IMG/VR virus record: IMGVR_UViG_3300029476_000065
DNA length: 5,224 nt
DNA from: a virus
Lineage: Duplodnaviria; Heunggongvirae; Uroviricota; Caudoviricetes
Reading direction: 5' to 3' (one strand)
Part shown: one piece after another, positions 1,409 to 2,376 of the stretch
Position numbering within the stretch: the stretch's first letter is position 1
Layout: every line of letters begins with the position of its first letter
Made by a program: the position numbers and the translations under genes
The notes under the pieces: generated by a model
The model's input: only the letters and a program-made list of their open reading frames with translations
What the model was told of the DNA's origin: nothing
Database searches by the model: none

Positions 1409-1801
1409 CTACCAGCGAGATAAGCGAACGACGTGTTTTACCTTAGCGATCCACTTACCACGTGAGTTATTAATTACGGCCTGCGCCACCTTTAAGCTGA
1501 CTTCAAAATCAGCCTTACGACCATCAGAATCCACCAGCGTTGCACCGTCTATTTCCGGCAGGCTTAAATAATCCTGTTCTACCTCTAATGGCATTGACGG
1601 CTCTCTGAATGGTGTCAATTGCCGAGCTTTCCAGATAAAGCGAACTCTCAATCCCCTATAAGCCATTACCATGTAGCCTGTTATCGTGCTCTTATGGCCT
1701 GCATCAGTACGCGCAGCATTACACGATACAATCTTACAGGTGACGATATTCCACTCCACATTGGATACTTCGTGAATGCTTAATTTTGTGGTCTCGTACA
1801 T
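1409..1801 (-). CDS. Hypothetical 130-aa basic protein, downstream member of a translationally coupled pair
   Basis: ATG at 1799-1801 shares one nucleotide with the TGA stop (1801-1803) of the upstream gene. GGGAGG Shine-Dalgarno 7 nt upstream of the ATG. Stop TAG at 1409-1411. By my count K+R exceeds D+E. No recognisable motif. Confidence 0.75.
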   Translation of the reverse strand: MYETTKLSIHEVSNVEWNIVTCKIVSCNAARTDAGHKSTITGYMVMAYRGLRVRFIWKARQLTPFREPSMPLEVEQDYLSLPEIDGATLVDSDGRKADFEVSLKVAQAVINNSRGKWIAKVKHVVRLSRW

Positions 1802-2376
1802 CAGAATGCCTCCCAGTCAGTCGCGATAATATCCACGCCAGTGGCGAACCAGTCTGTCTGTGCCTGTAAGTCTCCATTCATCATTACCAGCCGAGGCATA
1901 ACCATCACATCGCACCCTTCCACAATATCGAATGCTTCTTCCGGCAGGAATTCGACGAGCTTTTCTTTGCTGCCTATACTGCCACGGAACATCGACATAT
2001 AGCTCCCTTTAGGCCATGATGCCCGGCGGGCGTCAAGCCCCTTCATCATCCAGAACACGGCGGCAGAAAAATTGATGTTCTTTTTGGCGATGAAAACATT
2101 ATTGGCTTCTGTTTGCTTCAGAAACTTAATTAGCCTTGCCATCGACTCTGATAACGCTACGTATGGCTCATGATTGGCTGCGGACACGCTCACACCATGT
2201 AATCCAACACTGACTACCGTCATATCGCCGCTTTGAGCGGTTTCAATGTTGACACCTTTGCGAACTAACGAGGCATAAAGTTCCTCTCGCTTTTGTGTCC
2301 AGCGTTCCCGCTGACCGATGAAGTCACTCAATATGAGATCTGCTTCTGCATACGCGTTATCGTTCGCCGTTAACAT
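1801..2376 (-). CDS. Hypothetical 191-aa acidic protein, upstream member of a translationally coupled pair
   Basis: ATG at 2374-2376 preceded by AAAAAGGAG with 5-nt spacing. Uninterrupted 191 codons. Stop overlaps the start of the next gene. By my count D+E exceeds K+R. No family recognised by eye. Confidence 0.8.
   Translation of the reverse strand: MLTANDNAYAEADLILSDFIGQRERWTQKREELYASLVRKGVNIETAQSGDMTVVSVGLHGVSVSAANHEPYVALSESMARLIKFLKQTEANNVFIAKKNINFSAAVFWMMKGLDARRASWPKGSYMSMFRGSIGSKEKLVEFLPEEAFDIVEGCDVMVMPRLVMMNGDLQAQTDWFATGVDIIATDWEAF

Follow-up and report, generated by a model that had tools for sequence, protein, structure and literature searches.

A translationally coupled gene pair of D6-like phage-plasmids unites a pocket-variant Tad2 homologue with an orphan partner and is a candidate counter-defence operon

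The present analysis concerns two overlapping genes, here called orfA and orfB, in a 5,224-bp stretch of viral DNA from IMG/VR record IMGVR_UViG_3300029476_000065 (hereafter the window). The window matches Escherichia phage D6, a P1-family phage-plasmid, at 94.5% identity across 97% of its length, and Shigella and E. coli plasmids of roughly 90 kb match it at about 98% identity; by nucleotide identity the window is part of a D6-like phage-plasmid, an element which also carries dar/ddr anti-restriction genes. Every gene of the window is on the minus strand; the order along transcription is tRNA-Asn, tRNA-Tyr, tRNA-Thr, tRNA-Ser, tciA/TerB, a tciB-like gene, a tRNA with a CAT anticodon, orfA, orfB, lpa and the 5' part of pacA (Table 1). 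The pair thus lies between a tRNA gene and a regulator, as an earlier note made from the sequence alone had described. That note took orfA and orfB for a candidate toxin-immunity or anti-phage module of no recognisable family, seated in a tRNA-rich accessory region of the hotspot kind, and these further claims fare unevenly below.

Table 1. Features of the orfA-orfB locus, in window coordinates.
Feature	Position	Strand	Evidence or remark
orfA, 191 aa, acidic, long-form Tad2-family	1801..2376	(-)	Open reading frame, PF11195, phrog_7362, dN/dS, PGAP name
orfA N-terminal domain, aa 1-98, orphan	2083..2376	(-)	AF2 (AlphaFold2) pLDDT 70-90 over residues 7-91
orfA C-terminal Tad2/DUF2829 domain, aa 99-191	1804..2082	(-)	Pfam, alignment with SptTad2 8wjd, hhalign
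orfB, 130 aa, basic, lineage-restricted orphan, RsaM-like predicted fold	1409..1801	(-)	
Coupling junction	1799..1814	(-)	GGGAGG 1809-1814 inside orfA D-W-E codons, then TGATG
Shine-Dalgarno AAGGAG of orfA	2382..2387	(-)	5 nt before ATG
orfA operon leader	2401..2470	(-)	Conserved block across lineages; weak evidence
orfB-lpa intergenic region	1301..1408	(-)	Comparison with P1 Olpa/Plpa and with other lineages; sequence inference
lpa, late-promoter activator	908..1300	(-)	PF25716 (E 1.4e-56) and synteny; always directly 3' of the orfA-orfB pair
tRNA, CAT anticodon	2830..2905	(-)	ARAGORN: tRNA-Met; conserved upstream neighbour of the pair

The description of two minus-strand open reading frames (ORFs) of 191 and 130 amino acids, each behind a strong Shine-Dalgarno sequence and translated as a unit, was borne out. 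The orfA stop codon (TGA, 1801-1803) and the orfB start codon (ATG, 1799-1801) have base 1801 in common, forming an ATGA overlap, and the orfB Shine-Dalgarno sequence GGGAGG stands 7 nt before its ATG. This junction, GACTGGGAGGCnTTnTGATG, survives even where protein identity between lineages falls to 31-35%: a TGATG or TAATG overlap, with GGGAGG in Asp-Trp-Glu (DWE) codons, recurs in D6 and in the lineages that we label L026, L002, L033, L034 and L037, and also in L059, which is described below. The 3' end of orfA, with its conserved D-W-E codons, therefore contains the Shine-Dalgarno sequence of orfB. When the window is compared with D6, the ratio of non-synonymous to synonymous substitution rates (dN/dS) is 0.075 for orfA and 0.113 for orfB; the rates differ between the genes, and both are real genes under purifying selection. 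The acidic upstream and basic downstream products that the note had counted out were also confirmed (orfA, isoelectric point (pI) 5.00, net charge -6.3; orfB, pI 9.39, net charge +4.8), and the pattern holds in other lineages, where orfA ranges from -1 to -7, acidic to near neutral, and orfB from +2 to +9. Homologues of orfA include D6 orf6 (YP_009914683, 92% identical) and the near-identical WP_341514772; those of orfB include D6 orf5 (YP_009914682, 77% identical) and the near-identical WP_264867387.

The verdict of no recognisable family, while correct for orfB, fails for orfA. Residues 102-190 of orfA match PF11195 ('Thoeris anti-defense 2-like', formerly DUF2829) with an E-value of 3e-9 and a score of 37.7 bits, above the gathering score (GA) of 25, and cover profile positions 2-72 of 73. 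The match is full-length in all six orfA lineages scanned, with scores of 43, 37.7 (window), 31.9, 27.1 and 22.8 bits, the last of these, in the most distant lineage, being below the GA. The C-terminal domain aligns end to end with SptTad2, whose structure is solved (8wjd), and hhalign comparison of seven orfA C-domains with a profile of SptTad2, HgmTad2, ModTad2 and D6 orf114 returned a probability of 94.6% (E 6.5e-8, 90 columns). The protein is assigned to phrog_7362, and RefSeq/PGAP today names orfA 'Thoeris anti-defense Tad2 family protein' and orfB 'hypothetical protein'. The Tad2 hallmarks F-x-x-A, G, R-x-x-W, P-[YR]-[FL] and W-x5-D-x2-A-x-D-W are kept in orfA. By profile and alignment, orfA is a homologue of the Tad2 family with a complete domain.

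Tad2 proteins are homotetramers of about 90-100 aa (SPO1 Tad2 has 89), with pockets at the interfaces of their protomers, that are experimentally established as sponges for glycocyclic ADP-ribose (gcADPR), His-ADPR, N7-cADPR, cGG/cGAMP and cCMP. The gcADPR pocket is formed by W25, N26, W73, T78 and D79 in SPO1 Tad2, and by W21, N22, G23, W87, S90, T92 and D93 in HgmTad2. Like SPO1 Tad2, HgmTad2, SptTad2 and ModTad2, orfA is phage-encoded and aligns with them through its C-terminal 93 residues over the whole domain; it has the N-terminal helix motif, both pocket Trp (W121 and W176), the pocket Asp (D182), P161-R-L and the terminal D187-W188, and its inter-strand insertion is about as long as those of the 'long insertion' forms SptTad2 and HgmTad2. 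Unlike them, it is about twice the usual length, owing to a 98-residue orphan N-terminal domain, it has a coupled partner gene, and its gcADPR pocket is only partly conserved. In place of the canonical WNGKG ligand loop, orfA reads WP-KG (W121-P122-K123-G124), such that Pro stands in for the phosphate-binding Asn and the Gly after it is missing, and V181 takes the place of the Thr that contacts adenine. Of seven aligned orfA lineages, five have the WP-KG loop, and the two most distant have WPGT (L037) and NWDA (L033). The residues that form the pocket for c-di-GMP (cGG) in HgmTad2 (R31, F70 and N85) are not conserved either, and correspond by alignment to F130, V159 and T174 in orfA.

A second DUF2829 gene is present in D6 near cre: orf114 (L040, 28127-28567), of 146 aa, is canonical, scores 81 bits against PF11195 and has an intact WNG loop. 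D6-like elements may, on this evidence, carry genes for two distinct members of the Tad2 family. Diverged orfA homologues were once labelled 'MW1434 family type I TA system toxin' by PGAP, a name that might seem to favour a toxin-antitoxin (TA) module. The label belongs to the DUF2829 domain, has since been replaced by the Tad2 name, and is no evidence for a toxin, because it can be traced to a purely bioinformatic prediction made for an 81-aa S. aureus prophage protein. Natural truncated variants of orfA and orfB occur in low-quality assemblies and are uninformative as a test of a TA function, because neighbouring genes in those assemblies are frameshifted too.

The N-terminal domain of orfA is moderately well modelled by AF2 from seven sequences (predicted local distance difference test (pLDDT) as given in Table 1), as helix-helix-strand-strand-strand-helix. 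No sequence relatives were found in Pfam, PHROG or the PDB, where a profile search gave chance-level matches only. Foldseek searches of the PDB with the orfA model returned weak matches resembling double-stranded RNA-binding domains (E 0.03-0.3), an identity that we rejected, as these matches stand by themselves and the typical KKxAK-type motif is absent by eye. Fusions of Tad2 with another sponge domain, either Acb4 or Sequestin, are common, and the N-domain was for this reason also tested as Acb4. Acb4-Tad2 of Pasteurella phage Pm86 and the Sequestin (PF21825)-Tad2 fusions likewise have a small extra domain N-terminal to Tad2, and the helices, three-stranded sheet and helix predicted for orfA loosely resemble Acb4 as described; unlike the second sponges of these fusions, however, the N-domain matches neither PF13876 nor PF21825, has no PHROG in common with the Acb4 family member Sf6 gp66, and reaches an hhalign probability of only 0.2% against it, so that at the level of sequence and profile an Acb4 identity was likewise discarded. 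It remains an orphan.

For the partner, orfB, searches of Pfam, NCBIfam and PADLOC gave no family. Exhaustive searching of 1.84 billion (1.84e9) representative proteins with HMMER recovered 12 relatives, one of them spurious (P0024, a 496-aa repetitive match, which was discarded), and no distant relatives were found in viral contigs or in GTDB representative genomes. Sequence searches of the PDB with orfB and with an orfB profile gave chance-level matches only, and a similarity of residues 76-126 to Roadblock/LC7 (E 0.3) was treated as chance. The AF2 model, built from ten sequences, is confident (pLDDT 89.5, predicted template modelling score (pTM) 0.81) and places three long antiparallel strands at residues 18-64, followed by short strands and two C-terminal helices (99-127). 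The predicted arrangement is the five-stranded antiparallel sheet wrapping two helices that is typical of RsaM. Compared with the RsaM protein BCAM1869 (PDB 4o2h), identity is 11% and the Z-score falls just under the n/10-4 rule of thumb for a 'strong match'; no sequence relation between orfB and RsaM was detectable, either through Pfam or directly against 4o2h, and a fold search of BFVD returned nothing at E <= 0.001. orfB has three invariant or nearly invariant Trp, and a conserved Trp quartet is a trait of the RsaM family. RsaM represses quorum sensing by acyl-homoserine lactones (AHL) in Burkholderia and Acinetobacter; it is a dimer that does not bind DNA or AHL and whose mechanism has not been explained, for which reason the match predicts little for orfB. 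Further, rsaM is an independent unit beside luxI/luxR in hosts and elements of other types, whereas orfB is the second gene of an overlapping pair with no luxI/luxR in its neighbourhood. The RsaM-like predicted fold would thus give orfB a name, not a function. Altogether, the profile and fold searches that the earlier note had called for yielded a Tad2 domain in orfA and an RsaM-like predicted fold in orfB, with no toxin fold in either, and a PADLOC scan returned no matches.

The order tRNA-orfA-orfB-lpa-pacAB-c1 is fixed in lineages down to 31% identity. In all 36 loci found via orfB, among them one on a Raoultella plasmid and others on metagenomic contigs, at 31-36% identity, orfA lies immediately upstream and lpa downstream; a search with the orfA C-domain added 15 metagenomic loci, of which 14 have the pair, so that lpa lies downstream in 51 of the 51 loci examined, all of them D6-like elements. 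Constant co-occurrence of the homologues, which the note had proposed to test, is upheld by the loci found through orfB, and fails in one lineage. In L059 (Ga0105251_10000084, an 89-kb contig), positions 2677-3460, orfA is intact with all its motifs and the TGATG junction is kept; beyond the junction, all that remains in place of orfB is an 18-codon ORF, which leads straight into the lpa control region. orfA can therefore do without orfB and serves some purpose by itself. The lineage of L034 (Raoultella ornithinolytica plasmid CP196041) deviates in the other direction: an additional ORF of 86 aa with no family (5169-5429) follows the conserved leader and runs into the start of orfA, which makes a three-gene operon in that lineage.

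In PLSDB, the pair is found on 121 plasmids of Escherichia, Salmonella, Shigella and Enterobacter, of which 119 are predicted to be non-mobilizable, and those listed are mostly 86-96 kb in size. Among 5,426 complete E. coli genomes, 99 (about 2%) carry it, always on a plasmid and never on the chromosome; among phage records it occurs in D6 only, and it is absent from GTDB species representatives. It therefore does not have the patchy, mobile distribution across unrelated replicons that is expected of a TA module. A published survey detected Tad2/AcrIIA7 in 93% of D6-like elements. The co-occurrence shows that orfA and orfB are inherited as a unit.

As to the hotspot claimed for this region, the slot does differ between P1, where humD, phd-doc, pdcA and pdcB lie before lpa, and D6-like elements; within the latter, however, the pair is a constant occupant of which only the allele varies. 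D6 has phd-doc, pdcA and pdcB at other positions, and it also has another TA pair, orf70/71. Further upstream, beyond the CAT-anticodon tRNA, gene content changes from lineage to lineage. For example, tciA and tciB, which in the window lie between tRNA-Ser and the CAT-anticodon tRNA, are absent from L061 (NZ_CP150992) and L002, and the variable part of the region is therefore upstream of that tRNA and not the orfA-orfB slot. The alleles themselves differ markedly: the flanks of the window and D6 are 99-100% identical, whereas the block from about 1050 to 2500, which contains the 5' end of lpa, orfB, orfA and the leader, is only 76-92% identical, with the minimum over orfB, and the Lpa protein is still 99% identical. 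On this circumstantial sequence pattern, the block looks like a cassette of old alleles exchanged by recombination, as would be expected at a locus of host interaction.

The pair is preceded by a leader of about 100 nt that is conserved across lineages, in which hairpins can be drawn at 2454-2470 (TAGCCGCTCAGGCTGTA) and 2408-2420 (TCGG-TTTAA-CCGA), the latter followed by GGGATGG; RNAalifold predicts 11 pairs, two of which have compensatory changes. Between orfB and lpa there is a C1-operator-like site, TTTTCTAATA, at 1374-1390, a conserved block, CAGTCTATAC, and a hairpin predicted to sequester the lpa Shine-Dalgarno sequence, which together suggest that lpa has its own control region, with operator-like and promoter-like elements as in P1. 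The lpa leader hairpin (1301-1345) has compensatory changes between lineages (CCCCTCGG..CTGGGGG versus CCTTCCGG..CCGGAGGG). A similar element, CCGG-N4-5-CCGG(G)GGGAT(A)G, is present in the orfA leader (2401-2420), where the window version, TCGG..CCGA, has a compensatory double change. The two elements could be targets of a shared regulator. A search for the P1-type late-promoter pattern (-22 GTNACTT plus -10) found none in the window and four scattered matches in D6, none of them near late operons.

We favour, and give about an even chance to, the reading that the pair is a counter-defence operon, in which orfA would be a long, pocket-variant signal sponge of the Tad2 family and orfB an accessory protein or a further factor. 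The homology of orfA, the coupling, the conservation and the synteny are established here; that orfA works as a sponge, its ligand, any contact between the proteins and the timing of expression are parts of the reading that we infer. By analogy with the tetrameric Tad2 proteins, the C-domain of orfA may form an oligomer that binds and sequesters a small nucleotide-derived immune signal from a host Thoeris, CBASS or Pycsar system, such that the effector of the host would never be switched on. With Pro at the Asn position of the WNG loop (WP-KG) and Val where classical Tad2 proteins contact adenine through Thr, orfA probably holds its ligand in another way than those proteins hold gcADPR, and that ligand might be a different signal. 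The extra N-domain has precedent, since Tad2 is frequently fused to a second sponge domain, and both this orphan domain and the basic orfB would be accessories, the latter not strictly required. orfB might bind orfA, or act beside it on another host factor; the ATGA overlap on one mRNA would ensure that the two are made in fixed proportion. That the pair is the most diverged block between nearly identical backbones, and yet under purifying selection in both genes, is in keeping with this reading. Of the two functions offered in the earlier note, it is thus defence or counter-defence that gives the best account, the TA or immunity alternative being favoured only by gene order and charge.

Several findings weigh against the counter-defence reading. 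The Asn altered in the binding-deficient W21A/N22A double mutant of HgmTad2 is the very residue that is Pro in orfA, and with the deletion of the next Gly and the divergent loops of the most distant lineages, ligand binding by orfA is therefore not assured. AF2 models residues 92-191 poorly (pLDDT <50, from a seven-sequence alignment), and the Tad2 fold of the C-domain is accordingly proposed from sequence. The presence of the canonical orf114 in D6 may mean that orfA was recruited to another task. The only structural neighbour of orfB is a quorum-sensing regulator, and nothing ties orfB to defence. All loci represent one syntenic lineage, so that finding the two genes together does not count as independent evidence that they are functionally linked. 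Finally, a sigma-70 scan upstream of orfA gave nothing useful, and the promoter was not found.

The alternative that survives best, though we consider it unlikely, is that orfA and orfB are small, functionally unrelated phage genes which happen to be adjacent, orfA being a DUF2829 protein with a role other than as a sponge, and orfB acting independently. ATGA overlaps are common between unrelated genes in phage operons, and the single lineage behind all the co-occurrence, the loss of orfB alone in L059 and the differing evolutionary rates of the two genes would all fit; against this, the junction and the pairing are kept at 31-35% identity while genes upstream of the tRNA come and go. The role in question might be that of an AcrIIA7-like anti-CRISPR protein. 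CRISPR-Cas systems in E. coli and Salmonella are, however, of type I rather than type II. DUF2829 proteins have also been deposited as AcrIIA7 or 'inhibitor of type II CRISPR-Cas', although the authors who defined Tad2 argue that DUF2829 is anti-Thoeris rather than anti-CRISPR.

Distinctly unlikely, in our judgement, is a regulatory or sensing module, in which the Tad2-like domain would be a receptor, and not a sponge, for a host nucleotide messenger and the RsaM-like orfB would contact the transcription or translation machinery and so tune lpa or the lysis-lysogeny decision. This would suit the constant position of the pair directly upstream of lpa-pacAB-c1, the motif CCGG-N-CCGG(G/A)GGGAT common to the orfA and lpa leaders, the sub-nanomolar affinity with which some Tad2 proteins bind c-di-GMP, and the separate canonical Tad2 gene of D6. 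The likeness to RsaM is nevertheless at the level of fold, and to a protein whose own mode of action is not settled; lpa appears to retain its own operator and promoter region, and is kept in L059, where orfB is missing; and no Tad2 protein is known to be a receptor. A long shot that borrows from both the regulatory and the counter-defence readings is that the Tad2-like domain has been re-purposed, its altered pocket, the N-domain and the RsaM-like partner together forming a heteromeric device. Such a device could be a two-protein sponge or inhibitor of new specificity, or it could be a sensor of a host nucleotide immune signal that is relayed via the RsaM-like regulator to lpa; if true, either would place the RsaM fold for the first time in a functional context other than quorum sensing.

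Least probable is a type II-like TA, addiction or abortive-infection pair with the acidic upstream orfA as antitoxin and the basic downstream orfB as toxin: gene order, the one-base ATGA overlap of small adjacent genes and the opposite charges are as in many TA pairs, and P1 likewise has a two-gene overlapping pair, phd-doc, in the region upstream of lpa, but phd-doc has no homology with orfA-orfB, is separated from lpa by pdcA and pdcB and is, with a further TA pair, already present elsewhere in D6, no toxin or antitoxin family was found in Pfam, NCBIfam or PADLOC, nor any recognisable toxin domain or helix-turn-helix, ribbon-helix-helix or AbrB DNA-binding antitoxin domain, the dozen orfB relatives are confined to one locus of one plasmid lineage where typical TA modules are mobile and scattered, and an intact orfA persists without orfB in L059.

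D6-like phage-plasmids occur in E. coli, Salmonella, Shigella and Enterobacter, and the host immune signals that they neutralise would help to decide their spread. Given the loss of the phosphate-binding Asn, the extra orphan domain and the coexistence of a canonical Tad2 in D6, orfA is a good candidate for a new ligand specificity. As a clean orphan with a tiny family and a confident model, orfB could in turn illuminate both the accessory factors of sponges and the unexplained RsaM fold. The discovery is a modest one, because public annotation already places the main gene in its family; the novelty that remains lies in the altered pocket, in the orphan N-domain and in the partner, an orphan that is conserved.

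Some minor observations concern the remainder of the window. The CAT-anticodon tRNA at 2830-2905, which ARAGORN calls tRNA-Met, is annotated as tRNA-Ile by PGAP in NZ_CP150992, and is for that reason probably a lysidine-modified tRNA-Ile2; L002 too carries a CAT-anticodon tRNA upstream of the pair, and the corresponding stretch of L033 contains a tRNA-like sequence with a CAT anticodon loop, read by eye only. The tRNA-Tyr(gta) of the window (4512-4598) has nothing to match it in D6, identity in the 100-nt bin concerned being 7%, and a second diverged stretch, or an indel, lies at 4001-4100. The tRNA at 3891-3977 on the minus strand is tRNA-Ser(tga) according to ARAGORN, its best Rfam match being tRNA-Sec at 43.5 bits, below the gathering score of 47; it was flagged as unusual by the annotators of D6 as well. 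Just upstream of tciA, positions 3661-3781 (minus strand) give a sub-threshold Rfam match to the small RNA STnc100 (39.4 bits against a gathering score of 47, E 3.7e-6). pacA is interrupted by 41 N at 810-850, masked or unresolved in the source sequence. Long hairpins with a repeated CACAACAGG(A/T)AAGGG / CCCTTACCGTTGTG motif lie between the tRNA genes at 2589-2645, 4102-4207, 4335-4430 and 4869-4965, and may be processing or terminator-like elements.

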